From the NCBI GenBank assembly GCA_965216315.1, contig CBDCFN010000016.1, positions 1,792,001 to 1,856,000 on the forward strand: a stretch of DNA of 64,000 nucleotides, written 5' to 3'. The notes beneath the pieces were generated by a model. It ran no database searches. It was not told the DNA's origin and worked only from the letters and a program-made list of their open reading frames with translations. Origin of the DNA: a bacterium (GTDB lineage: Bacteria; UBA10199; 2-02-FULL-50-16; JAJFLM01). Positions within the stretch are counted from its first letter, which is position 1, and every line of letters starts with the position of its first letter. Positions 12,050 to 40,749 of this stretch are shown here, one piece after another. The translations under genes and the position numbers were made by a program.

Positions 12050-12607
12050 ATGGGAGAAAGTAACCTGGTTAATTGCAAAGCCAATAAGGATCCTTGGCTT
12101 ATGCCGAAGTGTGAACCCAGAGAAGAAACCAGCGATGAGTTTTATGAGCGTATTGAAGCTGAAGTTGATGCAGAAATCGCGGCGGAAGAAGCTAAAGCGA
12201 AGGCTGAGGCCAAAGCGAAGCCAGCTAAGCGTGTCGTTGCTGCGCCACCGCCACAGATCGCCGGAAACGGCCCGATGACAGCTGATTTAAGTTCTTTGAC
12301 AGAACCCCTCGTCCCCGGCCCCACAGCAGAACCGACCGTAACAGCCACACCAAAACCTAAAAATGTTCAGTATCGCAACGTTGTGTTCAACACAGGGGAC
12401 AATCAACGAGGCGCCGGCCGCATCGCCGTTGTTAAAGCGGGCAGTAATGAACGTGAAATGGGAAATTACTTGTCAAGCGAAGGCTTCGATCAAACGCCAA
12501 TCCGCTTAAAGGACGGCAGGTTGGTCTACGTCCCGCAAACCATGAGTTCGACGAATAAGGCTTATCTACAGGTAGCCCTCGAAAATGGGAACCTGCGCTT
12601 AAAATAG
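12050..12607 (+). CDS. Hypothetical protein
   Basis: taaggag RBS, shared promoter motif, Ala/Lys/Pro-rich linker. Confidence 0.7.
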   Translation: MGESNLVNCKANKDPWLMPKCEPREETSDEFYERIEAEVDAEIAAEEAKAKAEAKAKPAKRVVAAPPPQIAGNGPMTADLSSLTEPLVPGPTAEPTVTATPKPKNVQYRNVVFNTGDNQRGAGRIAVVKAGSNEREMGNYLSSEGFDQTPIRLKDGRLVYVPQTMSSTNKAYLQVALENGNLRLK

Positions 12608-12878
12608 AAAGCGTCCTAAAAAAGTTAAGCCCGCGCCAGCGACTGAATTTCATCACTGAGCTGCGGAGCAAAGGGATGGACAAGGTCCGATGCGGCGAGC
12701 AATAAGCCTGGCGCGCCCGCCTCAACAACGCTATGCGTCATTCCTCTGAGGCCCCTTCCCCCCAAGTTGAGGACTTCCGTTGACAAAAACATTTATTTTT
12801 TAATTATTTGTAAACATTACTATCTAAAATTCTCTAATATTTTCAAATAATTATAAATTTATGAATGCATACTCTATT

Positions 12879-12894
12879 TGGCATTATCTTTGCA
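12879..12894 (+). promoter_or_regulatory. sigma54 promoter of giant gene A
   Basis: TGGCATTATCTTTGCA (GG-N10-GC) after an AT-rich tract. Confidence 0.7.
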
Positions 12895-12946
12895 TTTGTA
12901 AACAGCATCACTCCGGGTGCGACCGGTGATTATTGAGGAGTAATGC

Positions 12947-15900
12947 ATGGGTGATCATCCCAAGATAGAAAAGCAGGTTCAGGAAATATTGGCAGGTGCG
13001 AACAATCCGCCTCCAGCCATCCACCCACGCCTGCTCAAGGAGATCCCACCGGAAGTAATCGACGACACGCACTCGGTTCGCATCACCGCGGACGGTTTCG
13101 AACTGACCCCAGTGAATGCCGAGCCTATGCCTCCCGAGATGGCAGCCTGTCTCCAGCAACCGAATCAAACTGCAAGACTCGACTGTCTTTTTTCACCATC
13201 TACATACCAAACCCCTGATGTCGACACGTGCCTGGCCATGCCCGACCCGAATGCTTCGGTTAATTGTCTCTTCGGTCCAGGCCTGAGTTTATTTACACCG
13301 ACAAGCACCAGCGCCACAACCATCGCAACCCCAGTCGCACCGACTGAAGAGGCTTCGGAAGTCGACAAGGCATTGCATGAACTCGCCACTGCGGACACCG
13401 ACGAAAAACGCAAATTTGCAGCCAAAAAGGCCTTGGCTGCCGCGAAAAAAAGTCCGAACGCTGAGGTATTGGCCGTGCCGATGGTTACTGCCGAGATCGC
13501 TGCGATCAATGGAAAATATTTAGAAGCCGCCAAGCAGTACGCGCAGCTCTCCGCTTCGCTGCAAGTGCTCGCGGCGACGAATAAAGAAATTCAACCTCAC
13601 GTCGACACCGTTGAAAAACGACGCCGTGGCGTTCTCGCCGCCGGGGCCGCCGTCGCGGTCGCCCAGATCAAGTATGCCGAATCCCCGGAAGCAGGATTAC
13701 GCTTGCAAAAACAGGCGACGGACTGCGCCGATCAATTGTATCTCGCTGAACCGACCGAGAAAAATCTCCAGCTCCTGCTCGCCACGTATGCCCAGGTCGG
13801 TCTGGATGTCCGCGAGGGGCGCCGCCGCATGGCCGCCAATGACTATCGTATCAATGCCCTCACGTTGGGTACCTTTGATCCGAAGCTGGACCCCACCGGG
13901 GAAAGCAATCCCGCTCCTGACAATGATCCTTTCAATTCCAAAAGCATCTTGGGTCCCGACATCAACGACATCGATCACTTCGGCTTCAAGGCCGAACGCT
14001 CCAAGGCGGATACGATCGCCGAGCTGCAGCAAACCAACAAGGAACTCAAGGGCATCGTCGATGAAACCGAACAACATATTCTTAGTCTCATCGCCCGGGC
14101 GCATCCAAACGATCCGTTTGCCTCCAATGTCCAAACGGCCACCGCGCATGTCGTCATGGGCAACAACCCAGCCGCGATGAAAAACCTGCAGGTCGCCCGC
14201 ACACTCTTCAAAGATAAGAGCGTCGAGCACACGCCTGACAATAAAGTGACCTATATCACCCTGCTCCACCGCATGGTGGATATCGCCGGGACGAAGACGG
14301 CCCTCAAGGAAGAAGTCTTGCTCGAAGCCCGCCAAGCAATTGATGAAATGATCAAGTCGCATCCCAAAGTCGCCTTGACCCTGCGTCTCGAGAACATGGA
14401 GCTGCTGGGCCAAGTTCGCGTCGATAAAGCAGCGCGCAAACTCAATGACAAATCCTTAAGTGATGATGACCGCAAAAAAGCCGTCGACAACTATCACCGG
14501 GCCCTGTCACGCAAACATGAAAACATCTTGATGTATTGCAAGCAAGTCTTGCCAATGACGCAGGATCCCGAAGCCCGCAAAGTTCTCATCGGCGGCATCG
14601 CACGTGCCGACGCCGGGCTGCTCGAGGCTCAACTCGATCGCAGCATGACAATTTATCTCAACGGCAACGAAGACCTCGGCAAGGGCTATGCCCAAGTCGA
14701 TATGGATTCGTTTCATCGGCGCATGGCGGAACTGCAGCAGCAGAATCCGACAGTTGATCTCAGCGAGGCCTTGAGCCGCGGGATGTTGGCCCAAGCGCAT
14801 TTTCAATTCCGCACCGGGCAGATCGAAGAGTCGGTTAAGAACCTGCGCAAAATCGTCAACGATCATCCGAAGTCAACCGCGGCTAACATGGTCCGCAGTA
14901 AAGGCGGTTGGGCGCATAAGTACAGTATTGTTACGGACAAGGGTGAATTTAATCCGAACATCGGCACCGAAAGCTGGACGGCCGGCACCAAGGAATTACT
15001 GGGCAAACTCAATAAAAAACCCGGCCGTGCGATGTTGGCTGCCACCGGCGGTTCGATCGTCGGCTGGGGCGCCGGGATGATCTTCGCCCCGGAAATCACC
15101 GGCCCCCTGTTAATCGCCGGTGCGGTCGGTGGGTTTCTTATCGATCGCACGGTTCTCGTCGCCCAAGAGTGGTCCCAAATCTCCGCGGCCTACAATACGG
15201 GAATCTCGACGGTCAGTACCGAAGAAGCGGCCCGCGAAGGCGGCATCTTCGCCCTGCAACTGTTCAGCATGTTCGTCGGCGGGGCGGCCGGTGGTGTTGC
15301 CGAACGCGCGGTCCTCGCGGGTGGAACGCGTCTGGCCCGTTCAATGGCCATGCGCGGGATTACCTCGTCGCCGTGGATGCGCGCGACCGGGGCCTTCGCG
15401 TTGCGTGAGGCCTCTTATGTGGCCAATGCCTATGCCTTCCATGAAACGTCTAATTTAACGACGCAGGCCATCGGAACGGCGGTTGGTCTCGATATCCCCC
15501 AACCCGACTCGAGTCACAACGATGATGTGATCTCGTCTTGGCTCTTCGTCCGCGGCTTTGCCAAGGCGATGAAGATGAACCTCGGTGCCAAGTTTGTCCC
15601 CGGTGAGAGCTTCGGCGCGAAGCTGGCGCAGGGTTCGATCAACATGGGCGTGGGCTTGGGCATCGTGCATACGGCCAAGGCCCTGCGCGAATGGGACCTG
15701 CGCCACCTCGATCCCGACACTCTGGCACGTTCGGCGTTTGATCTCTTGCTCATGCACCACGGAAACAAGGCACTTGGTTCCGTCATTCCGATGTCCGGGA
15801 TTGAAAAGATGAGTAAGGACCTCGAAACGATGACAAAGAAAAATATGCGCGACGCGGCGGCGGCGGTTAAATTTAAACAAGATACCGGGCTTTCGCTACG

Positions 15901-18900
15901 ACAAGCAGTGGGCCTGGGTTCGAACCCTCTCGCCGCACTTCTCCCGGTTCTCATGTACGGCCTACCCATTGTTCCAGGAAAGGGAACAAGTAGTAGAAAG
16001 GCCGAGTCCAAACCAGAAAAGAAAGCGGATCCGGAAGCAACGAATCCCGGACACACGGAAGCAAGAAACCCAGGCGCTAGAGAGGATACTAGGACCAAGG
16101 CAGGTAGAGGAACCAATCCGGGCGTCGACACAAGAAAAGTCGCCAACCTGGATCCTACTTCATTCCTTGCCGAACAGCTCCGCAAGAATGCGTCCACTGA
16201 CTCTGACCAATCGAAAGACACTCGTTCAGAAGAGCACTTGTACGTCGCGGCTTTCATCGAATATTATAATCAGCCCGCACGCATTGAAACGCTAAAAGCA
16301 CTCGGTCAACGAGAAGGTGATGTGGGCCGGAGCGCACGACGTTTCCATGATACATTGATGGACCTTCACATCGACATAGCCGAATACAACCGACTTGCCG
16401 CTGAAAACGTCGATAAAAAGGATCCGGCTGTCACCGAAAAAATGGAAAAGCTCTGGAAGCACAAGATTCTCCGCATGGTCAATCCACGGAAGAACACGCG
16501 TCTGGGTCATGACGGAAATAAATTCGGCGCAGGCGAGCTGGAGCAGCATGACTATAATCAAATAGAAACCGCTTACGCGAATAAACAACAAGCTCTTAAT
16601 AGCGACCTACGCGGCCTCTTCACGGTTCTTGCCATCCTCGAAGTCAAGGCCAACGCCGAGGCTAATAACAGCGGCAAGATGCCCGAGATGGGCTACAAAG
16701 TTTCTTATCAACGCCCTGAAGACCTGGCCCATGTCAACTTTGACCTGAATAATCTCAGCGAAAGTTTTTCCAAGTTATCCGCCCATGAGCTCGTTCAACT
16801 CAATATCCGTGCCAGCAGCCATGAGGCCGCACAGCGCATCGTTGAGACGTTTCGTAACGCCGGATATGAGGTCGTGTCGCATCCCGGGCAAAAAATTAAT
16901 TATAAAGTCAAGGTCCCTTACACGCACAAGATAGGCGGCGTGGAAATACAAGGGACGCATACGGTTGGGCTCAGGCTGGCCGTCGAACCTGCACCCCTCG
17001 GAGCTAAAACCCGACTCTCTCCCGCCGAGACCGCCTCACACGGTTTTGAACTGGCCTGGAACAATAAAAACTTCTGGTCGGAGACCGCTATTCCCGTCCT
17101 TCATAACGGCAAAGTCATTATTTTCAAGATGCGCCCGGGCCTCCCGGAGCCAACGGGTAAGTTTACAACCCTTGCTTCGGAAATCAATGAAACGATTACC
17201 GATCCAGTCGCCAAAGAGCGCCTCCTCAACATGGTCACGGCCCTCCATGGCCTCCATGAACGCCTGCCGCAAGGGGCCAATAAGACCAAGATTGAAACGG
17301 CGATCGATGAATCACGGACCGCACTCCTCAAGAACGGTGCCCGCACGGAGAGTTTAGCTGCCGTATGGTTGACGCTGGGCACTGCTTTGGCCGCATCAGC
17401 GCCGAAACTTCCGCACGTAGCAAGACACTCCACGGAAATGCGCGTCGACCTTCATCTCCCGAAGACCGATTATGACCACCATGTTGCCCAGAATAGTTGG
17501 AAATACACATTACCCGTGCTGCAACGCATGCCCAAGCGGGTGAGACAGTATATTGAATTGGCGACCGCTCCTTATTACGTCGATGGCATGAGCGAACCTA
17601 TCGTTCCGGATGCGCAGAAGACGATTGACTTGGTGACTCACATCGGAGTCGAAAAATTTGATTCCATTTTAAAGGCCGTCAAAAACAACGAACCTGCCCG
17701 CGCCAATATCGACACCTTGCTCAACTATGCGCTCGACACCACGAATTCCGAGAGAAACGCTCACGTCAAAGATTTCATCAACAAGGCATCGATTCATCAA
17801 ATCTTGCTTCTCGTCACCTATCCCGGTAAGAAAAATGTCGTCGCGCAGATCGCCGAAAAGGGTTATGTCGACATACTCAGCGGAGACCCCGCGACCCATG
17901 TCCCTCGCATCGAAAAGATGACCGACACTGCGCTTCGTGATGTACTTCTGGCATTAACGGCACAACGCATGTTTCAACAACATAAGGACAACCCTAAAGC
18001 AACGACGCCTGAAGGCATGGCTTTGCTGCTTAACTTTGGCATTGAACCCGACACGCATTTTCGCTTTCCCTGGAACGCCGTAGATGTAATTGACCGCTCA
18101 AAGCTCTATTTCCGCATCAAGACAGAGCGCAGGGCCTTCCGCAAACAGCTTGGCAAAGCCATTGAAGGCAAGGAAACCGAACTGGATGCGTTGACTGATA
18201 AAATTTGGGAACTCATCCTCATCCAGGACTATAAGGACACCCACCTTCCTTACACTCCGCATGGCTGGAAGCACACCCTCGATGTCGTCAAGGAACAACG
18301 TAAAATTTATAATGGGTCTCCCGAACTCCAAAAAGCCTTGATCGGACAGTTTGGTTCCGAGGCCAAGGCCCTTGCCGTCCTCGATATCGTCGCCATGATG
18401 CACGATGTGGGTTACGGAGCCCTTAAGCCGGGGGAATCCAAGGGAATTCATGCGATCCGTAGCGGTGAACTCTGGAAGGCCCAAATTGCCGACCACGCCA
18501 AGAAAACCCTCGATCTCAATGACAAGCAAATTGAAGATATTTTCTTGGCCATTCAACGCCATGGCGCCGACAAAAAGGGTAAAGGCGGCTACATGGAGGC
18601 CAACTTAGACAACCCTCTCCTCTTTGTCATTCGATTGGCGGACAATCTTGATTCAAGTAAGTCACGGCTCCGTAACATTCAGACACACCCACTTTTTATT
18701 GAGGGTATGAAAGAGATGAGAGAATTCGCTAATGAAAATCCCGATGTCGTCAACAACAAGAAAGAAATGAAGGCCGCGTTACAGAAGATTCGTTTGAGTT
18801 ACGAAAGAAAATTTGAAACGAATATGAACCCCAATGATGCCAAATTAGCCAAAGAACTTTTGGACCGCATGGACCATCTGAGTTGGCCTCACTTTAAGGG

Positions 18901-19210
18901 CTGTGAAAAAGTTTCAACGGTCCACATCACCGAAAAGGAAGGTCAGATGGTCGTAACTTTCGAAATCGCCGGCTTGGCTAATTCAGGCACGGTCACCGAA
19001 CAGCTCAGTGGGAAGACCATGGAAGTGGATGCCGCGCTCTATCAGCTGTGGCGCGCGATCGTCTCGGCCGAATCCCTCGACTACAATGGCCAGAAGATCA
19101 AGTTTAAATACGTCGAACTCCACCCCAGCAATCCGCATAACGGAGACGTAACCGAATTTGCCGGAGACGGTCCCAAGTCCTATCGCCTGCCGCTTGGAGA
19201 GATTCAATAG
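12947..19210 (+). CDS. Giant multidomain protein A (helical/TPR-like, hydrophobic Gly-rich core, C-terminal HD-domain phosphohydrolase)
   Basis: 2087-aa ORF, gaggag RBS; YTPHGWKH...MHDVGY...HAIRS...RHG...RLADNLD HD motif set. Confidence 0.85.
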   Translation: MGDHPKIEKQVQEILAGANNPPPAIHPRLLKEIPPEVIDDTHSVRITADGFELTPVNAEPMPPEMAACLQQPNQTARLDCLFSPSTYQTPDVDTCLAMPDPNASVNCLFGPGLSLFTPTSTSATTIATPVAPTEEASEVDKALHELATADTDEKRKFAAKKALAAAKKSPNAEVLAVPMVTAEIAAINGKYLEAAKQYAQLSASLQVLAATNKEIQPHVDTVEKRRRGVLAAGAAVAVAQIKYAESPEAGLRLQKQATDCADQLYLAEPTEKNLQLLLATYAQVGLDVREGRRRMAANDYRINALTLGTFDPKLDPTGESNPAPDNDPFNSKSILGPDINDIDHFGFKAERSKADTIAELQQTNKELKGIVDETEQHILSLIARAHPNDPFASNVQTATAHVVMGNNPAAMKNLQVARTLFKDKSVEHTPDNKVTYITLLHRMVDIAGTKTALKEEVLLEARQAIDEMIKSHPKVALTLRLENMELLGQVRVDKAARKLNDKSLSDDDRKKAVDNYHRALSRKHENILMYCKQVLPMTQDPEARKVLIGGIARADAGLLEAQLDRSMTIYLNGNEDLGKGYAQVDMDSFHRRMAELQQQNPTVDLSEALSRGMLAQAHFQFRTGQIEESVKNLRKIVNDHPKSTAANMVRSKGGWAHKYSIVTDKGEFNPNIGTESWTAGTKELLGKLNKKPGRAMLAATGGSIVGWGAGMIFAPEITGPLLIAGAVGGFLIDRTVLVAQEWSQISAAYNTGISTVSTEEAAREGGIFALQLFSMFVGGAAGGVAERAVLAGGTRLARSMAMRGITSSPWMRATGAFALREASYVANAYAFHETSNLTTQAIGTAVGLDIPQPDSSHNDDVISSWLFVRGFAKAMKMNLGAKFVPGESFGAKLAQGSINMGVGLGIVHTAKALREWDLRHLDPDTLARSAFDLLLMHHGNKALGSVIPMSGIEKMSKDLETMTKKNMRDAAAAVKFKQDTGLSLRQAVGLGSNPLAALLPVLMYGLPIVPGKGTSSRKAESKPEKKADPEATNPGHTEARNPGAREDTRTKAGRGTNPGVDTRKVANLDPTSFLAEQLRKNASTDSDQSKDTRSEEHLYVAAFIEYYNQPARIETLKALGQREGDVGRSARRFHDTLMDLHIDIAEYNRLAAENVDKKDPAVTEKMEKLWKHKILRMVNPRKNTRLGHDGNKFGAGELEQHDYNQIETAYANKQQALNSDLRGLFTVLAILEVKANAEANNSGKMPEMGYKVSYQRPEDLAHVNFDLNNLSESFSKLSAHELVQLNIRASSHEAAQRIVETFRNAGYEVVSHPGQKINYKVKVPYTHKIGGVEIQGTHTVGLRLAVEPAPLGAKTRLSPAETASHGFELAWNNKNFWSETAIPVLHNGKVIIFKMRPGLPEPTGKFTTLASEINETITDPVAKERLLNMVTALHGLHERLPQGANKTKIETAIDESRTALLKNGARTESLAAVWLTLGTALAASAPKLPHVARHSTEMRVDLHLPKTDYDHHVAQNSWKYTLPVLQRMPKRVRQYIELATAPYYVDGMSEPIVPDAQKTIDLVTHIGVEKFDSILKAVKNNEPARANIDTLLNYALDTTNSERNAHVKDFINKASIHQILLLVTYPGKKNVVAQIAEKGYVDILSGDPATHVPRIEKMTDTALRDVLLALTAQRMFQQHKDNPKATTPEGMALLLNFGIEPDTHFRFPWNAVDVIDRSKLYFRIKTERRAFRKQLGKAIEGKETELDALTDKIWELILIQDYKDTHLPYTPHGWKHTLDVVKEQRKIYNGSPELQKALIGQFGSEAKALAVLDIVAMMHDVGYGALKPGESKGIHAIRSGELWKAQIADHAKKTLDLNDKQIEDIFLAIQRHGADKKGKGGYMEANLDNPLLFVIRLADNLDSSKSRLRNIQTHPLFIEGMKEMREFANENPDVVNNKKEMKAALQKIRLSYERKFETNMNPNDAKLAKELLDRMDHLSWPHFKGCEKVSTVHITEKEGQMVVTFEIAGLANSGTVTEQLSGKTMEVDAALYQLWRAIVSAESLDYNGQKIKFKYVELHPSNPHNGDVTEFAGDGPKSYRLPLGEIQ

Positions 19211-19367
19211 CGACGACACAGCGCGTTAAATTCGAGGTGGACAGAAGTCTCCAGCAGTGGGGCCTTTGCTTACTAATATTATGTTTTTTTAAATTGAGTA
19301 AACAAAGGATTTTAATATTTATGTAATAAATTCATCTATTTATATAAATAATACTGTATACTTATAT

Positions 19368-19383
19368 TGGCATATACATTGCA
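19368..19383 (+). promoter_or_regulatory. sigma54 promoter of giant gene B
   Basis: TGGCATATACATTGCA (GG-N10-GC), followed by tgtaaacag...gggtgcg.ccg as upstream of gene A. Confidence 0.7.
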
Positions 19384-19473
19384 TCTGTAAACAGTAGAGG
19401 CGGGGTGCGTCCGTCCTGGAAATTGTCATGAACACCACGGAAACAAAGACAACCAGTAGAGGGGGTAATTGCC

Positions 19474-22400
19474 ATGGCACCGCCTAGCGCCCTGGTCGCC
19501 CTGTTCGGCCCCCTCGCCCCGGTCCTTTTCACCACAGAAACGGCCGAAACCACCGCCGCCACGGATCCGATTGCCAAGGATTCGTCTTTCTTGGATCGAT
19601 ACCTTGAGGCAGCTAAATCCAAGCTTCTCATCGATCAGGCCCTCGGAACGCCCGGCAATACGTTCAGCCTGACGATTAAAAAATACAAAAATGACGGTTT
19701 CGCATACGACCAAGAAGCCGCGACTTTTTATGTCAACGAGGCCCAACACGCAGCCATGCAGGAGGATTTCAAATTAGCACGCCGCTATCTGCGCAAGGCT
19801 GAATCGCACAATAGCGGATTGATTGATAAAATGGTCTTGGGCGGCCTCATGAAAGACAGCGTTATTATGGGCGGTCTCTTCGAAAACAAACAAAAAGAGC
19901 TTGTCGCCGGCTGGATCAATACCGCCAAACAAAATATCCAAACCCTTGAACGTGAGTATTGCAAAGACCTGATCGATGAAGGCCGGAGTCACTTCCAGTC
20001 CGGCGATTATGCTAAGGCGCGCTCGGTATATACTGAGTCTATCGAACACGATTCACGTAATCTGGAGACACGCAAGCTCCGCATCGAAGCCAATCAGAAA
20101 TTACTCGCAGCGGATGAAGACGATCAAACGGCCAAGCTCGAGCTGGAACAGGATATGGCAATGGTCCAGGCCCTTGAGTTCGATACGGCCGCGGCCAGCA
20201 TCGACAAGATCGGCAAGGATTTAGCAAAGTTTCATGATGCCGACCTAAAAACGAAACAAGAAATGATCAGCGGTCTGGAAGCCATGGCGCAGCAGTATTC
20301 GATGCTGGGCACGGTCCAATTCGATAATAAGTCGGATACGAAGTTCGTTCGTAAAAAGTTAAGCGACTTGAGCGCCAAGACCTATCGCATACTCGAGGAC
20401 TTCAGCCAAGCCGACAAGGATCCGGCCATCAACGGCCTGGCCAAAACCTACCGTGGCCGGCGCTATCTCGCCAAAGGCAAGATCGATAAGGCGCTCAAAG
20501 TTTTTAAAGAACATCGCAGTGACAATATGGCGGCTGCCGGCTTCACCGACGAAGCGGCTTACACCGCTCACCTCGACAAGGCCGCGAGTGACGTCGAGGA
20601 GCTCTTCAAGGCCGGCAAAGCGGAAGAAGCGCAGAAGCTAATCGAGACGCTGCCGAATGCCGTCTTTGCCACCCATGGTATCATCAAACAGATCGAGACC
20701 GACAAATTGCGCCGATTAAACGTCTACGCCTTGGAGGCATGGCGTTCCTTCATCATCGAAGGGGAAGCTGTTGAATTCGACCAAGCCAAGGGTTGGGTCG
20801 CTTCTTTTGTCATGTTCGGAGAAACACTCGCCGGTAGCGAAACAATTGACGACCGTCTCGCGAAACGCTGGGGACTGGAAAAAGACCTTCACAGCGCCGT
20901 TACGAAAAAAATTGCCGACGGCGAATGCAATACAGTTAAAGAAGCACTTCTAGATATCAAAGCGAATGGGCCAGAAAAATTTCATGCCCGTTCTAAAGAA
21001 TTGCTCGACAATGAATTTCAGCATAGCAACGATGCCAGTTTTGTCCTCCCGCACATCATTGGCTATGCCTCGGCACTAAACTACGATGAAACGGCACCCA
21101 GCATTCTCGGCAACGTACGGCCGTCACAGTATCTGATGGACGAGGCCGCCCGTATCAATGACCAATTCATGGTCCCGAATACCCCGGGGGCCATCTATGC
21201 CATGATCCAGGCCAGTAACACCGATGAGTCCACCAAAGACGCTGCCGGTGATGCAATCGAAAAGCTGGACGACGCCAAGGGATTTAGTGATTCACTCGTC
21301 GCCTTCTGGCACTCGGAAAGCCTGACGAGTTTGGCCCTTGACATAGTAACCTTTAAAGCCGCAGCGCGCGTTGGCGCCAACGTATTTCTGAATACCGAAA
21401 AAGCGCTGCGAGCCGGCGGCTACAGTGCCCGGGCCACAATGTATCTGTCGGAGGGAGCCGGTCTCGTGGCGGAAAATACGATTCTCACGCCTGGCATGCT
21501 GGTCAAAGCCGGGGCTTTTACCGATACCCGCCGCGTCTATTCGCCGTCGCACATGGCCAAAGAATACGGCGCCAATCTCGTCATGTTATTTTGTACCAAG
21601 GGACTCGCTTCACGCGGAGCCGCGATGCTTCCGCGCGTCGCCCGCGCGGCCGGCTGGGTCGTTGAGGGAACAACGGAACTCAGCCGCTTTGGGAAACTGT
21701 TTACCTGGGCCGGGGGACACGCGATCGGCTTTCGCGGCATGCTCGCTTCCAGTGTGGCCAACCACTACCTCGGCCTGCGCCAGATGGCCTCCGACAACTT
21801 CGGTGGCGTCATCGCCGCGGAAATGTACAACTATGTTAAGTTTGCTGCGGCTCAACGCGCGATTGGATCCAAGGGTTCAAAAATCGAGCATCAAGTCGCG
21901 AGCCGGAAGGCCTCCCTTGAATCCCAGATGGCGGTTGAAAAGCTGGGCTACAAAGTCGTTGAGTATACGCCGCAAGGCGAAGCCGTCTTCAACGATGCGA
22001 CGGCTCAAAAACTTTATCATCAGTTCGCCTACAACCTGATTCAAAAGCCGGGCTTCAGCCCGGATAAGATGGCCAAGCTGGCACTCGAAGCTACCAAATC
22101 CGGCAACTATGCAAAGTTCAATAAATACTGCCAACGTTATGGACTCAGGGCCAAGGTCAACGAAAGCGCTCCCGACAAACCTGTCGAATCGCTCGAGCAA
22201 CCAACCTTTCATGAGCAATTAACGGCCAAGGACGAGGCAGCCCGACCGCTTCCTTTGCCGGAAGCAACGCGACAGTTTCTCGAAGCGGTCAAGGATAACC
22301 AAAACATCACCGTCCTCGACATCGCGGCAGATGGAAAAGTCACATACAAGACCCGGAGTTATTTGCTCCCTGATGTCTATACGGATACTGTTTCCACTTA

Positions 22401-23697
22401 TCTTCCCGGCATCGGTGAAGCGCAAGGTTATGCACCGGGATCGCTGCCGGCAGGTGCCCGTGTTGTAATGCCGGAGAAAAGCACTAATCCGCAGCTACCG
22501 CCGCAAGTTTTAAGACAGGCAAGACCCACCGAGACAAAAAACAAGGCCCCGGAAGGTACGATCGTCATGGATAAGCCCGGTAATGTAACGAATGAAGGAA
22601 CGGTTGTCATGGATAAGCCCGGCAACGTCACCAATAAGGGAACTGTTATCATAGACACGCCTGGCAAAGCGGCACTTGAAGCGGCGGGAGCAACACGTGT
22701 CGAAAAAGGACCCAACACGACCCAGCATGTGGATATCAGTCGCGAGACGACCCAACTGCATCATGCGCGCTATCGCCTCGCGCTGCTCGAAATAGAGAAC
22801 AGTTCCGTCGAACATGCGCCCTACTTTCTGCGCAAGGCCTTGCAGGATCTCGGACTCATGGCCGCCCAATCAACTCTCCCTGGTTCCACTAAGGCGCCCA
22901 TCACAATGAATTTAGTCCGCGCCATGAAAGGCGGGACCGAATATGTCGTCGGCGTCAATATCGGCCTGCCCAAGAACAATCGAGGGGCCAAAGCCGAGAT
23001 CTTGAGTACTCTCAAAAAGCATAATATCAACTACGACGCCGAATCCGGCACGATTGAAGTGCCGTTGACGGTCAGAGAAGTAGGAACGTCGGGCCCTATC
23101 AAAATAACCATCCCCTTTGAATTCGGCACCGATCACTATTCACAACCGGCCGCCCCACTCAGTCCGGTCGTCGCCGCCGCACTTGGCTATAAGTTGGCCT
23201 GGAATAATTCTCGTTATTGGACGGATACAAATCCGGCACTCGTCAGAATTCCGATTCTCGATGGCCAGAATATTTCCGTCTTTCAATTCAAGCCTGATTC
23301 GATCGAGATGAGAGGTCCCTTTAAGTCCTTGTCGGATAACGTCCGGAGCCAGGTCACCAACCAGGAAGCACAGACACGCACTGTCAACATGGTACAGGCC
23401 CTTCAGGCAGTCCATGAAAGCTTGCCCGCCGGTGACGGAAGGCGTCCCGTTATTCTGCGCACGGTTGCGGAACTCAATCGTTATCTAAGTGACAGTGGTT
23501 CAAGCGGTGTCAGCCTCTCTTATCTGTGGTCACGGATCAGTTACGGCATGCGCAAAGGAATGACCTTTAATCCGCATTTTCAAGGGCTTGCGGCACTGAA
23601 GCAATCGATTCGGACGGGCACTGAGCAGTCGGCCAAAGGACAGGAACTTCGCTATCAAAATGCCCCGGAAGACGCCAAGAAAGCCGTTGGTCAATAA
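19474..23697 (+). CDS. Giant multidomain protein B (TPR-like, hydrophobic core, Thr-repeat linker)
   Basis: 1407-aa ORF; TPR-like GRSHFQSGDYAKARSVYTESIEHD; N-half paralogous to C, C-end paralogous to an internal part of A. Confidence 0.85.
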   Translation: MAPPSALVALFGPLAPVLFTTETAETTAATDPIAKDSSFLDRYLEAAKSKLLIDQALGTPGNTFSLTIKKYKNDGFAYDQEAATFYVNEAQHAAMQEDFKLARRYLRKAESHNSGLIDKMVLGGLMKDSVIMGGLFENKQKELVAGWINTAKQNIQTLEREYCKDLIDEGRSHFQSGDYAKARSVYTESIEHDSRNLETRKLRIEANQKLLAADEDDQTAKLELEQDMAMVQALEFDTAAASIDKIGKDLAKFHDADLKTKQEMISGLEAMAQQYSMLGTVQFDNKSDTKFVRKKLSDLSAKTYRILEDFSQADKDPAINGLAKTYRGRRYLAKGKIDKALKVFKEHRSDNMAAAGFTDEAAYTAHLDKAASDVEELFKAGKAEEAQKLIETLPNAVFATHGIIKQIETDKLRRLNVYALEAWRSFIIEGEAVEFDQAKGWVASFVMFGETLAGSETIDDRLAKRWGLEKDLHSAVTKKIADGECNTVKEALLDIKANGPEKFHARSKELLDNEFQHSNDASFVLPHIIGYASALNYDETAPSILGNVRPSQYLMDEAARINDQFMVPNTPGAIYAMIQASNTDESTKDAAGDAIEKLDDAKGFSDSLVAFWHSESLTSLALDIVTFKAAARVGANVFLNTEKALRAGGYSARATMYLSEGAGLVAENTILTPGMLVKAGAFTDTRRVYSPSHMAKEYGANLVMLFCTKGLASRGAAMLPRVARAAGWVVEGTTELSRFGKLFTWAGGHAIGFRGMLASSVANHYLGLRQMASDNFGGVIAAEMYNYVKFAAAQRAIGSKGSKIEHQVASRKASLESQMAVEKLGYKVVEYTPQGEAVFNDATAQKLYHQFAYNLIQKPGFSPDKMAKLALEATKSGNYAKFNKYCQRYGLRAKVNESAPDKPVESLEQPTFHEQLTAKDEAARPLPLPEATRQFLEAVKDNQNITVLDIAADGKVTYKTRSYLLPDVYTDTVSTYLPGIGEAQGYAPGSLPAGARVVMPEKSTNPQLPPQVLRQARPTETKNKAPEGTIVMDKPGNVTNEGTVVMDKPGNVTNKGTVIIDTPGKAALEAAGATRVEKGPNTTQHVDISRETTQLHHARYRLALLEIENSSVEHAPYFLRKALQDLGLMAAQSTLPGSTKAPITMNLVRAMKGGTEYVVGVNIGLPKNNRGAKAEILSTLKKHNINYDAESGTIEVPLTVREVGTSGPIKITIPFEFGTDHYSQPAAPLSPVVAAALGYKLAWNNSRYWTDTNPALVRIPILDGQNISVFQFKPDSIEMRGPFKSLSDNVRSQVTNQEAQTRTVNMVQALQAVHESLPAGDGRRPVILRTVAELNRYLSDSGSSGVSLSYLWSRISYGMRKGMTFNPHFQGLAALKQSIRTGTEQSAKGQELRYQNAPEDAKKAVGQ
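22552..22668 (+). repeat. 42-bp (14-aa) tandem repeat, about 2.8 copies, in gene B
   Basis: EGTIVMDKPGNVTN / EGTVVMDKPGNVTN / KGTVIIDTPGK. Confidence 0.85.
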
Positions 23698-24323
23698 GAA
23701 GTAAATAGCGCCCGCAACCGCGCTATAAAATTAGGCTCGACCGCCTCAAGCAGCTCCGTATCTAAGGCCTGTGCGGCCATGATTGACAGGCTAACAACCC
23801 GCGACCGCGTCTCCGACCGCAATTGCGTCACACTCAACTGATTCACAATCATCGTGGCCAGTCTCATCGTCTCCCGATACGCATCCCCCTCTTTTGTTCC
23901 TGAATCATCTAAACGCGTCTGATGAAACTGTAACCCACGGACTTGTGATTGCAATTCACTTATACGCTGAGTTAATTGCTGTCGTGTCCTAAAATCTAAT
24001 TGGGGGACCTGTGCGGCAGCAAAGAGAGTAGCAATCTGTTCAAGAACATCGGGAAGATCCGTCAACAAGGCGGTCGCATGCGCTACCGCACCATGATCCT
24101 GATTGATAACAATGATGGGATCGCTATGCAACTGGACGACAGGCGCTAAAGCCAGTGACTTGGCACTTGATGACGGCGTGCTTTGCTGCGATTTGATTGG
24201 CCGCGCGGGAAGACTCTCCTGAGATCCGCTGGGATAAACGCCCGTTCCGTGAGGTGGCGTGTTCGAGGCTGCCAGTAAAGTTGGTAGCATTCCCAGATTG
24301 ATCGAAAAGGCGCCTGTTAGCAT
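23691..24323 (-). CDS. Hypothetical helical protein (flagellin-like segment)
   Basis: 210-aa ORF preceded by GCAAC-N15-GCCGATTT. Confidence 0.55.
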   Translation of the reverse strand: MLTGAFSINLGMLPTLLAASNTPPHGTGVYPSGSQESLPARPIKSQQSTPSSSAKSLALAPVVQLHSDPIIVINQDHGAVAHATALLTDLPDVLEQIATLFAAAQVPQLDFRTRQQLTQRISELQSQVRGLQFHQTRLDDSGTKEGDAYRETMRLATMIVNQLSVTQLRSETRSRVVSLSIMAAQALDTELLEAVEPNFIARLRALFTSY

Positions 24324-24521
24324 CGTGCCGCTAAATCGGCGCTCCGACTCCGAAAGTTGCGGTCCGTCGCCGCGGACGCCATTAAAAAGAGCTTACTTGT
24401 GTATACAGCGACAAGCAAATCTCACAAGTTGTGCTGACATTGAGCGCGCAAGTTGTGCGCTCACGCATCAGGCCTTTTCATTTAATTAAATGATTTTAAT
24501 AAGTTAAAGGCTCCCTCCTCT

Positions 24522-24537
24522 TGGCACGACCGTTGCA
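24522..24537 (+). promoter_or_regulatory. sigma54 promoter of giant gene C
   Basis: TGGCACGACCGTTGCA, a consensus match; gaggag RBS then ATG at 24563. Confidence 0.8.
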
Positions 24538-24562
24538 ATTGTATTGGGCACGAGGAGTGACC

Positions 24563-27500
24563 ATGACGATCGGACTTTTATTAACCCAACTTCCCGGCCT
24601 TTTAGCAAGCATCGGCAGCGGCTCTCGCCTTGATAACGCTGACTCCCCGGACAGCGCTCAGGCGGGAGCCCCTGCCCCCTTGCCCTACGCCGCGCCGCCG
24701 CCGGCAAAAAAAACGCCGTCTGCTCATACTTCGGTTTTCGGTCCCCTCCCGACCGATCTTAGCGACCCAAGCGACACCCATATCATCGCGGGCCGTAAAG
24801 CCTACACCAGCGGGGACTACGAAAAAGCCCACGCCGCTTACTCCAAGCGCATTCAACTCAAGTCACGTGACGTACTGGCCCGCCGTCTACGCATCGAGAC
24901 GAGTCAAAAATTACTGAGTAAAAATAAAAAGAAATTTAATCCGAGTCAGGCAACAGATGCGGAGAAAAAATCATTCCAAGACAAACAGCAACAACTACAG
25001 CGATGCATTCTTGCCGATTCGGCCATGGTCATGGCCATCGAAACCCCTCATGCAAAAAAGAAGCTTAAAGCGATGACCGCGCAACTCAAGAAGGCCCATG
25101 ACCTTCCCACTCCACAAAAGAAGCAAATTATTAAAGCCATCGAAGGGATGGCCCAAGAGTACCTGCTTCTCGGCTCGGTTCCCTATTCAAACGGACAGGA
25201 TGCCGCGTTCGTACGCAAACAACTCAGCGATCTTGCTAGTGATTGTTTTACAGTCCTGCGTGATTTTTGCACAGCTGATTCTGATACCAAAATTCAGGCT
25301 CGTGGAAAGTTGTACGACGGCTACAAATCCCTTGCCGAAGGAAAAGTCAAAGACGCCGTCACTCAATTTAAAAAGATCCAGCAGACGGCATTCAATACGT
25401 TTAATGTCTCTACCCATGAAGAATTAGCAAAATATATTGAAGATATTAAAAAAGATATTCGCGCTGCCGAAGCCAATGGCAAGCCAAAGGAAGCCCAGGA
25501 ACTTCGTAACCTCATCCCCGTAGGGGCCATTGAAGCGAGCACTATCGTTAATCGCATTGAAACGAAGCGACTTATGCAAATAAACCTCCATGCCCTCGAC
25601 GCCTGGAAGTCCTATATCGAAGAAGGCTCTGCGGTCGAAGCCAATGAAACCAACGGTTGGATCGGTCAAGGCATTCAATTTATCCAACTCGTCGGTCAAG
25701 ATCTCGGTATTAGCAAGGGAACAATTCAAGATAACCAAGCCAAGTACTGGAACCGTGAGAAACGCCTCGTCGGCACGATTCAAAAAATGCTCGTGCGCGG
25801 CGATTGCACGACAATCCAGGCGGCCTTACAAAAGATCCAGAGCAACGGTCCAGCAGAGTTCAAACCGCGTGCGACTCAATTACTCAGAGAGCAGCACCAA
25901 AATACGGTCCCGGGTGTCCGTCCCGATGCCGGCTATGCCTTGCCCCATCTTATTTCCTATACGTCAACACTGACGCCAACACCGGCGATGGCACAAAAGC
26001 TGGTTGAGGACACGATACGTTTTGACACCCAGCACATGGCCGTCAAAACGCCCGCTCATATTTTCTCGCTCGTCGCAGCAACAACTCAGGATACCGATTC
26101 TAAAAAGCTGGCCCGGCAACGCTTTGATCTCCTGCAGAAAGAAAAAGGGGTGGGTGACGTCATCGGCAGCATCATCGCCTCCGAATCGGGTCCCATGTTG
26201 GCATTTGACATTCTAACCTTTCGGGCTGCCGGCAAGGTCGGACTCAAAGCGACCGCCCGCGCCGGCACCGTACTTGGTAAAGCGGGTATTAAAGGCCGAC
26301 GCGGTGTCGTCCTCAGTCGTGCTGCCGGAATCAGCGCTGAGTCGGCGGCATTCTGGGGCATCGGCGCCGCCCGCGAAGGCGCACTTCACAATACGAGTCA
26401 GGTTTATACCGCCGAACATCTCGCCAAAAATTTCGGCGCGGACCTGATCATGATGACCTTTCTTAAAGGCGTGGTTCCCGGACTCAACCAACTCAGCTAC
26501 CGTGGAGTACGTGTGCTCGGGATGACGACCAGGGGCGGACTCGAACTGACTCGTGCCGGCAAAATATTGGCATGGGCCAGCGGTCACACGGCCGGAGTCG
26601 GCGGTATGTTCGCAGCCGGTCAAACCAGCGATTATTTGGGCCTCCGTGCCGCCCCCGCGGAAAGCTGGAGGGCGTCACTCGCCGTGGACGTCTATCAATA
26701 TATTAAATTCGCCGTCGCGCAAAAAGCCCTGACCGGTAAAAGTGCCGCTGCCGATCGCAAACTGCAGACGAAAATCGCACTTCAGGAATCATCGATGATG
26801 AGCGAGCAGGCCCTCGCCTCGCTCGGATATAAAGCTGCTTCTCGAGGGGAATTTGGGCAACCGCAGTACACTGATCCGGCCATCCAAAACCTTCATGGCA
26901 AGCTCGTTCGCTATTCCATCCAGGCTCAGGGCTTTAGTCCGGCGAAGCTCGCTCGCTACATCAAGCGGGGCCAACACTTGCAAGCGCAACGTTATGCGAA
27001 CGATTTTGGGCTTATTACCGAATGGAGCCGCACGGGCAAGACAAAGCAAATGACTGGCATTCGTGCCATGGAACTCCATGAAATTTTAGCGAAACGGGAT
27101 GCGCAGCAGCAGAAGAGTCCCATGCGCCAATTTATCGACGAGACACAAAAAATGCGGCGCGTGGCGGGCACGGCAGGATCCGTCCTCATTGCACTTCCTG
27201 CTACACCGGCCACAGAGCTCCCTTCAGGCAAAGCCAATGCAACGGAACCGCCTGCAAAGCGTTTTCAGCCCCCGAAAATCCCTCAAGCCAAGCCAACCAA
27301 GACAAAGGCCTCCTTCACTCCAGGATCGGAAGCCTTCGGCTCCGATGCCTTGCGATTCCTCGCGGAACGCGGCGGACTCAGCTTTATGGCCAATAGTCCG
27401 AAGGCCATTGTGGATTTCTTACGCAGCACCTATGGAGAGGCGCGCTTTCAACGGATTGAGTTCCTTTTTTCCGATAGTTCGCTCTCAAGAGCTCGCATCA

Positions 27501-29701
27501 ACAAGATCCGGGCCCGCGTCGCGGCCAAAGCCGGGGGCCAATATAAAAATGTCAACGAGCTACGCCGGATTATCGACATGGTACTCAAAGAAGACGGTAT
27601 TGATCTCAACGCCTGGAAAAAGGAAAAAGGACAGCAATTTGAAAAGAACGGGAATGCCTTTGACAAGCAAAAACTAGACACCGTCCATAAGGACGCCCTC
27701 GAAGGTGTTCTGCTGATTCAGCTCATGCCTGATAACGTTCCGCTTTATCGCTCGATAGAAACAGCCCACGCGGGCAAAGCCAGCAAGATAGGTTCATCCT
27801 ATTGGGGCGTTGGTGACAACGGCATGAAGGTCGCCTCCAGTTACGCGACTCCGCAACGTATCTTTATCAAGACAACACTCGGTGAAATGCGAAAACGCGG
27901 CATCGTTCGAAGCGATGAGATGGCGGTGACAGGCAATGCATTGGAACTCTATCATGCAGAATATAAAGAGAGTTGGGCAACTGTAAGCTTTGAGGTCGTT
28001 GGACCGAAACGCGTCGAGTATCCAGCACGCATTCAAGATTTCATCAAGCAATACACGAGAGGGTACTTCGAAGAAGTGACAGGTCGCATCATCCCGGGAC
28101 CGGATCCAAAACCGCTTATTGAACTGATCAATAAAATAGGCACTCGAAAACTTGATTCTATCCTCAAAGCGATTGAAAGCAATCCCCAAGCCCACGCTAA
28201 TTTAGACGTGCTCTTAGGGAAAGCCACCGACCCCAACCGCCCCAATCGCCACGTCGCCGATTTTCTTCAACAGGCCTCAGTCGACCAAATCCTTCTTCTC
28301 GTTAGATATAACAAGACGCGCGCCGTTGTCTCGGTCATGGGCAACAAAGGTTATCTCGACATGCTTGGCGGTGATCCTGCGTCACATGTCACACGCATCG
28401 AGAAAATTACCGACCCAGGAGTGCGCAATTTATTGCTGGCTCTCACGGCACAACGTGAGTTTCAGCTCCGCAAAAAGGATCCGAGCCGCAAGAGTAAGGC
28501 CGGTCTCGAACTGCTACTCGCCTTTGGTATCGATCCGTCAACCCACAAAGTCTTTCCATGGAACAGCTCTGATGTCATGGACCGTGCCTCTCTCTATTTT
28601 CGAGTCAAGGCGGAACGCGCAAGCTTCCAGGCCCAACTCGCTAAGGCGATACCGGACAAGCCGGCAGCCGTAGAAAAACTCGTAACTGACATCTGGAAGC
28701 TGATTAAGATACAAGACGTCAAAGATACGCATCTCCCTTTTACGCCTCACGGCTGGAAGCACACCTTTGATGTCGCTAAATTGCAGCGCAAGATCTATCG
28801 AGATTCACCCGCCTTGCGCAAGGCGCTTATCAGTCAATATGGATCTGAAGCGAAGGCCCTGGCCGTCTTGGACCTCGTCGCCTTGATGCACGATGTCGGT
28901 TACGGCGCCCTCAAAGAGGGTGAGTCAAAGGGCCGCCACGCCATACGCAGCGGAGAGCTCTTTCAGGCACAGATCGCTAAGCACGCCAAGAGAACTCTGG
29001 GCCTTAGCGACAAGCAGGTGAAGGATATCTTCTTGGCTATCGAGCGTCACGGCGCCGACAAAAAAGGCAAACCCGGTTATATGGAAGCGAGTCTGGATAA
29101 CCCGCTCCTCTTCGTGATTCGTCTCGCCGACAACCTAGATTCCAGTATCAACAGGTTGCGCAAAATTCAGACCAATCCTATTTTCATTGAAGCAATGAGA
29201 GAAATGAATACCCTTGAGTCCAAACCTGAACTCATGAATGATACCAATGCGATGAAAAAGGCTGAAACTCAAATAAAAGAGAGATATTACACGCGGCTCC
29301 AATCTAAACTACCTGAAAGCGATGCGGCCTTAGCCATCGAACTCCTCCAAAAGATGAATCATACGAGCTGGCCGCATTTCAAGGGCTGTGAAAAAGTCTC
29401 AGATGTCCTCATCCAGGAAGTCAACGGTCAACTAGTCGTCAACTTTCGGATTGCGGGATATGCTAACTCCGGCATCGTTAAAGAAAAGGCCACTGGCGGC
29501 ACGCTACATGTTGAAAGTTCGCAATATCAATTATGGCGTGCCTATACGGCTTCCCAATCTTTGGACTATAATGGCAAAGCTCTAAAATTTAGATATCAGG
29601 AACTTCTCGAAGGAGACCCGCGTGATGGCGGTGTTCCGCAAGATTTGAGAGCAGGCCCTCAATCCTATGCCCCTCCTCCGCTCAAGGCTGTCAGCGACTA
29701 G
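24563..29701 (+). CDS. Giant multidomain protein C (TPR-like, hydrophobic core, ART-like segment, C-terminal HD domain)
   Basis: Long ORF; start reassigned to ATG 24563 (RBS gaggag, downstream of the promoter); HD motifs nearly identical to A. Confidence 0.85.
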   Translation: MTIGLLLTQLPGLLASIGSGSRLDNADSPDSAQAGAPAPLPYAAPPPAKKTPSAHTSVFGPLPTDLSDPSDTHIIAGRKAYTSGDYEKAHAAYSKRIQLKSRDVLARRLRIETSQKLLSKNKKKFNPSQATDAEKKSFQDKQQQLQRCILADSAMVMAIETPHAKKKLKAMTAQLKKAHDLPTPQKKQIIKAIEGMAQEYLLLGSVPYSNGQDAAFVRKQLSDLASDCFTVLRDFCTADSDTKIQARGKLYDGYKSLAEGKVKDAVTQFKKIQQTAFNTFNVSTHEELAKYIEDIKKDIRAAEANGKPKEAQELRNLIPVGAIEASTIVNRIETKRLMQINLHALDAWKSYIEEGSAVEANETNGWIGQGIQFIQLVGQDLGISKGTIQDNQAKYWNREKRLVGTIQKMLVRGDCTTIQAALQKIQSNGPAEFKPRATQLLREQHQNTVPGVRPDAGYALPHLISYTSTLTPTPAMAQKLVEDTIRFDTQHMAVKTPAHIFSLVAATTQDTDSKKLARQRFDLLQKEKGVGDVIGSIIASESGPMLAFDILTFRAAGKVGLKATARAGTVLGKAGIKGRRGVVLSRAAGISAESAAFWGIGAAREGALHNTSQVYTAEHLAKNFGADLIMMTFLKGVVPGLNQLSYRGVRVLGMTTRGGLELTRAGKILAWASGHTAGVGGMFAAGQTSDYLGLRAAPAESWRASLAVDVYQYIKFAVAQKALTGKSAAADRKLQTKIALQESSMMSEQALASLGYKAASRGEFGQPQYTDPAIQNLHGKLVRYSIQAQGFSPAKLARYIKRGQHLQAQRYANDFGLITEWSRTGKTKQMTGIRAMELHEILAKRDAQQQKSPMRQFIDETQKMRRVAGTAGSVLIALPATPATELPSGKANATEPPAKRFQPPKIPQAKPTKTKASFTPGSEAFGSDALRFLAERGGLSFMANSPKAIVDFLRSTYGEARFQRIEFLFSDSSLSRARINKIRARVAAKAGGQYKNVNELRRIIDMVLKEDGIDLNAWKKEKGQQFEKNGNAFDKQKLDTVHKDALEGVLLIQLMPDNVPLYRSIETAHAGKASKIGSSYWGVGDNGMKVASSYATPQRIFIKTTLGEMRKRGIVRSDEMAVTGNALELYHAEYKESWATVSFEVVGPKRVEYPARIQDFIKQYTRGYFEEVTGRIIPGPDPKPLIELINKIGTRKLDSILKAIESNPQAHANLDVLLGKATDPNRPNRHVADFLQQASVDQILLLVRYNKTRAVVSVMGNKGYLDMLGGDPASHVTRIEKITDPGVRNLLLALTAQREFQLRKKDPSRKSKAGLELLLAFGIDPSTHKVFPWNSSDVMDRASLYFRVKAERASFQAQLAKAIPDKPAAVEKLVTDIWKLIKIQDVKDTHLPFTPHGWKHTFDVAKLQRKIYRDSPALRKALISQYGSEAKALAVLDLVALMHDVGYGALKEGESKGRHAIRSGELFQAQIAKHAKRTLGLSDKQVKDIFLAIERHGADKKGKPGYMEASLDNPLLFVIRLADNLDSSINRLRKIQTNPIFIEAMREMNTLESKPELMNDTNAMKKAETQIKERYYTRLQSKLPESDAALAIELLQKMNHTSWPHFKGCEKVSDVLIQEVNGQLVVNFRIAGYANSGIVKEKATGGTLHVESSQYQLWRAYTASQSLDYNGKALKFRYQELLEGDPRDGGVPQDLRAGPQSYAPPPLKAVSD

Positions 29702-39888: not shown

Positions 39889-39896
39889 AGAGTATT

Positions 39897-40687: not shown

Positions 40688-40749
40688 AGTTCCTTATAAA
40701 GGTGAAGCGCCTATGGATCAAGCTAAAGCTTGCTACGAAGGATCACGAC

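Follow-up and report, generated by a model that had tools for sequence, protein, structure and literature searches.

MARTX proteins and the large clostridial toxins are very large single chains in which a glycine-rich or hydrophobic region is combined with several effector modules; the hallmarks of MARTX are RTX/glycine-rich repeats, a cysteine protease domain and export by a type I secretion system (T1SS), and large clostridial toxins have an N-terminal glucosyltransferase, a cysteine protease domain (CPD), a delivery domain and CROP repeats. Part of the account of Zhang et al. (2012; PMC3482391) notes that the toxin domains of polymorphic toxin systems also recur in toxins that are aimed at hosts and delivered through type III or type IV secretion systems (T3SS, T4SS), and part of Soules et al. 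(2020; PMC7482065) describes sigma-54 control of T3SS effectors and membrane proteins in Chlamydia trachomatis. Here we describe four giant genes, A, B, C and D, in a 64,000-nucleotide stretch of DNA (the window; positions 1,792,001 to 1,856,000 of contig CBDCFN010000016.1) from a bacterium of the uncultured phylum UBA10199. We favor, at a probability of roughly 0.5, the interpretation that they encode exported polymorphic effectors under sigma-54 control, with the T3SS as the favored route of export.

Genes A (12947–19210, 2087 amino acids (aa)) and B (19474–23697, 1407 aa) are open frames on the forward strand and are followed on the same strand by C (24563–29701, 1712 aa). C was listed from a TTG at 24521 (1726 aa), but its start is most likely the ATG at 24563 because the TTG falls within a predicted sigma-54 promoter (24522–24537); the database entry for the protein, P0005, is also 1712 aa long. 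Gene D lies on the reverse strand in a frame listed to 61559, and since a promoter site and a GGAGGAG ribosome-binding site precede the GTG at 61484, we moved its start there; D thus probably begins downstream of the listed TTG and spans 57021–61484 (about 1487 aa). Matches to Pfam tetratricopeptide repeat (TPR) families are present in B (TPR_2, aa 166–196, E 5.7e-8, above cut-off) and in D, and D is related to an open reading frame (ORF) at C15:100250 and to protein P0009 of another genome, G027.

The initial annotation had reported three pairwise similarities among A, B and C, and BLASTP confirms all of them, where they had been placed and well above chance. B and C share a long N-terminal stretch (32% over 811 aa, E 5e-126; B 167–945 and C 88–881, the latter counted from 24521), A and B share a module (31% over 140 aa, E 5e-18; nucleotides (nt) 17015–17416 and 23158–23577), and A and C share their ends (55% over 594 aa, 649 bits, E = 0.0; A 1494–2082 and C 1130–1719). 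The further statement that A and C are alike even at the DNA level holds only modestly; BLASTN aligns segments of 489, 119 and 122 nt of the two at 71–73%, and it finds none between A and B or between B and C. In Logan contigs from four runs of one study, possibly the source samples, A, B and C are contiguous, with one contig of 12,347 nt covering window positions 12500–24670, and the mosaic is therefore not an obvious assembly chimera. These contigs also show dense clusters of substitutions relative to the window at 19662–20327, in the N-terminal part of B, and at 26776–27229, in the core and linker of C, the rest being identical; the clusters could reflect strain microdiversity or local recombination. 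The host genome is 2.96 Mb in 16 contigs and 98% complete.

The segment common to B (19972–22308) and C (24782–27163) is a conserved front unit, in which a TPR-like region is followed by a Gly/Ala-rich helical region. A profile built from C 330–830, B 400–900 and two paralogs (alignment A2) and searched against 1.84 billion representatives matched 88 proteins of 145 to 3654 aa, 73 of them with E <= 1e-10, and in BLASTP comparisons of the relatives the homology usually covers about 750 aa, taking in both the TPR-like region and the Gly/Ala-rich part. TPR repeats lie N-terminal of the unit in 11 of 29 relatives searched with Pfam. When ten of the matching proteins were looked up, three carried no name and seven were called 'hypothetical protein', 'tetratricopeptide repeat protein' or 'superfamily II helicase', and a literature search of main texts found nothing on this protein family. 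Within the phylum, sampled as 93 genomes of approximately 1.1–4.6 Mb, the unit is present in 19 genomes and in 13 of 73 genera, with 7–12 matches per genome in family f4. A, B, C and D are thus members of an undescribed and lineage-restricted family of giant modular proteins in this uncultured phylum.

All of the proteins had initially been credited with a long, hydrophobic Gly/Ala-rich core, and this needs some qualification. The composition is as described in A, B and C, whose cores have 26–31% Gly plus Ala compared to 18–19% in the whole proteins, but hardly so in D (18.6% versus 16.5%). Hydrophobicity holds for A, D and P0008, which have transmembrane-like segments, but the hydrophobicity of the corresponding helices in B and C is slight (mean Kyte-Doolittle values of 0.06–0.53). 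In A the region lies at 15014–15976 on the forward strand (aa 690–1010), with transmembrane-like segments at aa 709–740 and 766–785, and it is kept in the metagenomic protein P0100. A common core is found for the B/C type and the D type, which hhalign identifies as homologous (probability 95%, E 3e-8, 232 columns; the D core is at window positions 58260–59462), but it does not extend detectably to A and P0008.

An AlphaFold2 model of the front domain (C aa 330–830, from a 23-row alignment) is all-helical, with a predicted local distance difference test score (pLDDT) of 89.2 and helices of up to 44 residues. Six helices of 20–35 residues each cross the Gly/Ala-rich part; they are rich in Gly, Ala and Ser, mildly hydrophobic, and contain basic residues. 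Against the Protein Data Bank (PDB), Foldseek returned nothing for this model at E <= 0.001, and VIA-align gave only two chains with Z >= 8 (the best 8.2), both of them on the TPR-like stretch at model residues 79–211; because the model was searched whole (501 residues), the Gly/Ala-rich part was barely probed. A PDB sequence search with the front-domain profile (A4) gave nothing below E 0.25. ESM Atlas matches of the B core to PT-TG (0.86) and a Tle1-like C-terminal domain, with scores of 0.84–0.87, are below the meaningful level of 0.9 and are not evidence.

What follows the front unit is highly variable. Among 48 relatives with a complete front unit and at least 200 aa behind it, the tails fall into 27 groups without detectable similarity to one another, 19 of them singletons, and this bears out the description of these proteins as mosaics, in which the front part is conserved and the C-terminal cargo can be exchanged. 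Pfam searches of 29 of the 88 relatives identified RelA_SpoT behind the unit in two, FHA in three, HopA1 in one, and a ResIII/Helicase_C pair in one, with no family in 15. A provides a further example; it aligns with P0100 (1388 aa) at 33% over 1416 aa, and P0100 stops where the HD module of A starts, such that A amounts to a P0100-type protein extended by a terminal HD module. When ORFs of at least 400 aa were compared all against all by BLAST, one module-sharing component joined 17 ORFs of this genome and six external proteins, with a second hot spot of such ORFs at C16:1.28-1.32 Mb.

The module shared by the ends of A (17537–19192, aa 1531–2082) and C (28028–29677), both on the forward strand, has the fold of HD/phosphodiesterase (PDE) phosphohydrolases. 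In an alignment of eight modules (A1), H241, H245, H288-D289, H304, H341 and D368 are invariant in all eight and form the metal-binding H..HD..H..D motif. In the AlphaFold2 model of the C module (pLDDT 89.0, predicted TM score 0.86), an HD core is flanked by a helical subdomain of about 180 aa on its N-terminal side and by a beta-rich one of about 100 aa on its C-terminal side. The top VIA-align matches of the model are the HD hydrolase 2pq7 (Z 12.7, 164 residues), PDE9A (Z 11.7, 238 aligned) and YhaM (Z 11.4), followed by PPX/GppA C-terminal domains (Z about 11) and the PDE domains of the SidE family (Z 9.5–10.7). Foldseek gave nothing for this module at E <= 0.001, and a PDB sequence search with the A1 profile nothing below E 0.25. 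The Pfam model PF01966 (gathering cut-off 22 bits) is passed by P0007 (25.5) and P0010 (23.1); A has only a sub-threshold Cas3_HD match and C no match. Together, the fold matches and the invariant metal motif imply that the module is very probably an active, metal-dependent phosphohydrolase.

The combinations in which this module occurs differ across the genome and its relatives, as the initial annotation had proposed to check. Elsewhere in the same genome it is found in P0006 (1279 aa), where it follows a weak ParB-like match (Pfam E 0.023, below cut-off), in P0008 (2496 aa), and in an ORF at the end of contig C9. The only occurrences detected outside the genome are in the 1033-aa metagenomic protein P0007, where it follows HopA1 (Pfam E 2.2e-10), and within giant ORFs of 3436, more than 4780, 5046, 2960 and more than 1882 aa in four other metagenome-assembled genome records, with P0010 combining FHA and HD in one protein. 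It is present in two of 41 related genomes. A word-indexed search for proteins of 306–975 aa revealed no complete stand-alone copy; the single match, of 547 aa, is probably a fragment because it lies on a contig of only 1,737 nt.

The other modules are less readily assigned. Behind the linker of A (16178–17002, forward strand, aa 1078–1352) is a module recovered by an iterative hidden Markov model search (alignment A3) in P0006, a 2245-aa ORF at C16:731623, P0010 of G027 and the giant ORF at locus L019, and weakly in D; the A3 profile has no PDB sequence match below E 0.25, and an ESM Atlas search with A 1075–1495 gave no usable match. The adjacent module that A shares with B (17015–17416, forward strand), recognizable by the pattern LSP..G(F/Y).LAWNN, is also present in P0100. 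The C-terminal module of B (22927–23577, forward strand, aa 1152–1368) is related to A 1357–1490 and to the end of P0100, with which it aligns by BLASTP at 31% over 215 aa (E 7e-25). The middle cargo module of C (27365–28039, forward strand, aa 949–1173) has 31–32% identity to P0013 (aa 1832–2090) and P0058 (aa 611–821) and no PDB sequence match below E 0.25.

Several features of the linkers and N-termini recur within the family. The low-complexity linker of B contains a 42-bp tandem repeat (22552–22667, forward strand; 2.8 copies, Tandem Repeats Finder score 127) that encodes a 14-aa repeat, and motifs of the same type, (E/D)(G/V)T.V.(D/E)(K/G)(K/P), occur as four or five EVT.VEGK-like copies in the D linker (approximately 57900–58300, reverse strand) and also in the linkers of A and of P0010. 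Many modules are chained in single ORFs in the G027 proteins P0010 (L014:5658->20000) and P0009 (L015:7392-17702), and include TPR, core, a long helical-repeat region, post-linker, HD, FHA and, by eye, a PP2C-like stretch; P0010 lies directly after a 1251-aa ORF whose stop overlaps its start. Of the 71 family members with an initial methionine, 19 have a proline at position 3 (MTPP, MAPP, MVPP and so on), compared to about 5% of first-methionine ORFs of the genome, and several other family N-termini have a short hydrophobic stretch with a Gly-Pro pair (LFGP, LLGP). The N-terminal proline motif could be secretion-related or could simply be due to shared ancestry, and as the members are kin we treat it as a lead only.

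The four genes appear to be controlled in common by sigma-54. Using the -24/-12 pattern TGGCA(C/T)-N5-TTGC(A/T), we identified five matches in the window where 0.43 are expected, a number reached in none of 100 shuffles, with four of them oriented toward A, B, C and D. The predicted promoters lie at 12879–12894 for A (TGGCAT and TTGCA, 68 nt before the ATG), 19368–19383 for B and 24522–24537 for C (TGGCAC-N5-TTGCA), all on the forward strand, and at 61511–61526 on the reverse strand for D, and the sequences preceding A, B and C can be aligned on the motif. Across the genome there are 59 sites of the strict form TGGCAC-N5-TTGC, whereas ten first-order Markov simulations gave a mean of 4.7 and a maximum of 10; eight module-network ORFs are preceded by strict sites, and A, B and C15:171523 by relaxed ones. 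The genome contains rpoN (208 bits). The motif is also found in other genomes: among eight upstream regions from six of them, it lies 25–75 nt before a family start codon in five regions (five genomes), and in three of these the codons downstream of it reproduce the N-termini of P0014, P0016 and P0039. It was not found at loci L014–L020 and in the other three of the eight upstream regions, where guessed starts may be off.

Of 32 other ORFs behind strict sites that were compared with Pfam, 20 have no family, and seven of the remaining 12 have domains of extracellular type (TSP_3, RTX repeats, FG-GAP, PD40, Ig-like and, weakly, pectinesterase-like). The predicted regulon consists mostly of lineage-specific hypothetical proteins and includes three adjacent ORFs of about 700 aa at C16:654-664k; there is also a site at 2090–2105 on the reverse strand. 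Scans for sigma-70 promoters and for terminators were both at chance level.

A candidate export route is present in the genome. The only FHIPEP protein that it encodes is identified as SctV (806 bits, NCBIfam cut-off 692) and is below the FlhA cut-off. The cluster (C16:339134-341185 and C16:346000-361000) also holds SctJ-like, SctL, SctN, SctO, SctQ, SctR, SctS and SctT genes, together with genes for a sigma factor of the FliA type and a TPR protein resembling LcrH. By these assignments the genome encodes a non-flagellar T3SS; flagellin, the sheath protein TssC of the type VI secretion system, and VirB4 were not found in it, at 98% completeness. Small genomes, a T3SS and giant proteins might also have suggested Chlamydiae, an affiliation that we rejected; no TLC/NTT transporter was detected, in a search that had no positive control. 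SctV is present in 91 of the 93 phylum genomes, in 79 of them above cut-off, which suggests that a T3SS is phylum-wide among genomes of this size range. The literature search found no paper linking UBA10199 with type III secretion, and papers that mention the phylum appear to concern other topics.

A conserved N-terminal unit with C-terminal diversity, cargo that acts on nucleotides, phosphoproteins or DNA, and lineage expansion together make a signature of polymorphic toxins and effectors (PMC3482391). The lack of an immunity gene, the N-terminal position of the conserved part, the presence of a T3SS in a genome in which TssC and VirB4 were not found, and a tightly switchable sigma-54 regulon that also takes in seemingly extracellular proteins make an exported effector the most economical explanation; moreover, a conserved N-terminal part and variable C-termini fit an N-terminal rather than a C-terminal secretion signal, and we infer that the proteins are probably T3SS substrates. 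Each has a short proline-rich or hydrophobic N-terminus followed by a TPR-like region, a Gly/Ala-rich region, a low-complexity linker and one or more swappable C-terminal modules; in B, C and D the TPR-like and Gly/Ala-rich regions together make up a single conserved unit some 750 aa long. Sigma-54 and an enhancer-binding activator would switch the genes on together, and the products would leave through the non-flagellar T3SS. The front part may then serve in secretion or targeting and in association with the target membrane, while the cargo, such as the HD phosphohydrolase with its intact motif in A and C, or the RelA/SpoT-like, HopA1-like, FHA, PP2C-like (by eye), weakly ParB-like and other modules of the relatives, would act in or on the target cell, either a prey bacterium or a eukaryotic host.

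Several observations weigh against this interpretation. Modules of the HD, RelA/SpoT, helicase, ParB-like and FHA kinds are frequent in proteins of intracellular defence and signalling as well. No link from the cores of A and P0008 to either the B/C-type or the D-type core is found by hhalign, the Gly/Ala-rich helices of B and C are mild in their hydrophobicity, and the front domain has no fold match to a known translocation or pore-forming domain in the Foldseek and VIA-align searches of the whole model. The matches for the T3SS secretin and for SctJ score under the curated cut-offs, and because SctV is present in 91 of 93 genomes and the family in only 19, co-occurrence of the two is uninformative. 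Family genes are not beside the T3SS genes, and no adjoining chaperone gene was found; the T3SS cluster (C16:339-361k) contains no strict sigma-54 site, so that nothing visible places the apparatus in one regulon with the family. Finally, translation of C from the upstream TTG, the start that lies inside the promoter, would give it a signal-peptide-like N-terminus.

The immediate surroundings of A, B and C offer no partner genes and no operon structure. Upstream of A are ordinary chromosomal genes for ribonucleotide reductase, thymidylate kinase, DNA polymerase III delta' and methionyl-tRNA synthetase, and downstream of C are a convergent Na/Ca exchanger gene, an FAD oxidase gene and the nuo operon. 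The initial annotation had seen no co-oriented small immunity gene, and we agree; A is followed by the next giant gene, B by an ORF on the opposite strand, and C by the exchanger gene. The ORF between B and C (23691–24323, reverse strand, 210 aa, of uncertain status as a gene) has no Pfam, NCBIfam or PADLOC match, no paralog, and no counterpart at related loci, and two small ORFs at 11089–11901 and 12050–12607 likewise have no family match, paralog or counterpart at related loci. We note also that the region of the nuo-type NADH dehydrogenase (35113–49488, reverse strand) has five Proton_antipo_M ORFs (500, 561, 496, 501 and 683 aa) where three (NuoL, M and N) are usual, and that an S8 subtilase gene of 530 aa (61814–63406, forward strand) is divergent from D and lies just past its sigma-54 promoter.

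A different interpretation is that the proteins never leave the producer and are intracellular or inner-membrane conflict or signalling proteins, for example anti-phage proteins, in which the TPR-like region senses a trigger, the membrane of the producer itself is the site where the Gly/Ala-rich part anchors or which it disrupts, and the producer's interior is where the enzymes (HD, RelA/SpoT, nuclease, helicase) act. TPR sensors are common in defence systems, as are cargoes of the HD, RelA_SpoT, ResIII helicase, FHA and weakly ParB-like kinds, and the patchy distribution, the lack of an obvious Sec signal, and weak PADLOC matches to the HD parts of Cas10 and Cas3 can be counted in the same direction. 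However, PADLOC identifies no family beyond this generic HD similarity (E 5e-4 to 7e-3), the neighbours are housekeeping genes rather than defence partners, and the predicted sigma-54 regulon is held in common with ORFs for domains of extracellular type. Seventeen members in one genome would be unusual for defence, as would the multi-cargo chains of 3,000 to more than 5,000 aa with long low-complexity linkers in the relatives, and we regard this explanation as unlikely.

The same regulon could instead be taken to point to the cell surface, with giant adhesin- or enzyme-bearing proteins exported through Sec or a T1SS-like system instead of the T3SS and then displayed or released, not injected; the regulon includes an RTX-repeat protein and TSP_3, FG-GAP and Ig-like ORFs, several family members have short hydrophobic N-termini, and the linkers of B and D are long and repeat-bearing. 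Yet the HD, RelA/SpoT-like, FHA and HopA1-like modules need cytoplasmic substrates (nucleotides, phosphoproteins), Pfam finds no adhesin-type repeats and no Ig, cadherin or RTX domains in A–D, and the variable C-termini speak against a C-terminal T1SS signal; surface proteins thus seem quite improbable to us. Least probable of all, and very much so, is an autonomous AB-type toxin that binds a cell, makes its own pore with the hydrophobic region and frees its cargo by autoprocessing, a likeness to MARTX and large clostridial toxins that the initial annotation had drawn and for which no domain or fold test gives support. It has in its favor the general layout, since several cargo modules come after a hydrophobic or Gly-rich region within a single chain, and the long Gly/Ala-rich helices could be membrane-active. 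However, among A–D, P0009 and P0010 there are no Pfam matches to RTX repeats (HemolysinCabind), CPD (Peptidase_C80) or another autoprotease, to a glucosyltransferase or other glycosyltransferase, or to receptor-binding repeats. The front domain has no convincing fold match in the PDB, and the delivery domains of solved toxins are not among the matches listed for the whole model. The module order also differs from that of the large clostridial toxins; their cargo is not positioned as it is here, C-terminal to the hydrophobic region.

Sigma-54-controlled exported effectors therefore remain the interpretation that we favor, and three comparisons help to place it. The family resembles polymorphic toxin systems, as portrayed in the part of PMC3482391 noted above, in its conserved N-terminal part, its diverse and recombining C-terminal enzymes, its expansion and its patchy distribution. 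It differs from them in that no immunity gene follows the toxin end, in that RHS, LXG, PAAR, TPS/filamentous haemagglutinin, PT-TG and similar domains are undetected by Pfam in A–D and 29 relatives, in that the front unit is a new domain, and in that several cargo modules are possible per chain. With Chlamydia trachomatis, within the part of PMC7482065 considered, it shares a small genome, a non-flagellar T3SS, and a sigma-54 gene set that would include effectors; unlike here, the Chlamydia effectors are of ordinary size, the phylum is another and there is no sequence relationship, and the connection between sigma-54 and the T3SS in our genome is one that we infer. The HD module shares its fold (Z 9.5–12.7) and metal-binding motif with HD and class I PDE-like phosphohydrolases, including the PDE of the Legionella SidE family, but its match to that family (SdeD Z 10.7 over 151 residues, SidE Z 9.5–10.0) is no better than that to unrelated HD enzymes; unlike the SidE family, these proteins have no mono-ADP-ribosyltransferase domain found by Pfam. 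The module has no detectable sequence similarity to any solved chain, and it carries extra N- and C-terminal subdomains. The logic is known; the novelty lies in the front unit and the set of cargoes, in the coupling to sigma-54 and in the phylum.

The combination of one conserved, delivery-like part with dozens of unrelated cargoes is a hallmark of conflict proteins, and the shared sigma-54 promoter provides a handle for listing the regulon and from it predicting the 'attack' gene set of the organism. If export is true, then the front unit would be a new secretion or membrane-targeting domain, and the unassigned cargo modules would be a reservoir of new enzymatic effector activities. A broader proposal, which we regard as possible but doubtful, is that on the background of a phylum-wide T3SS some lineages have built a sigma-54-controlled arsenal of giant proteins, in which the 750-aa front unit would be a built-in secretion, chaperone or membrane-insertion device for almost any enzyme placed behind it, and which may serve in predation or in the exploitation of eukaryotic hosts.

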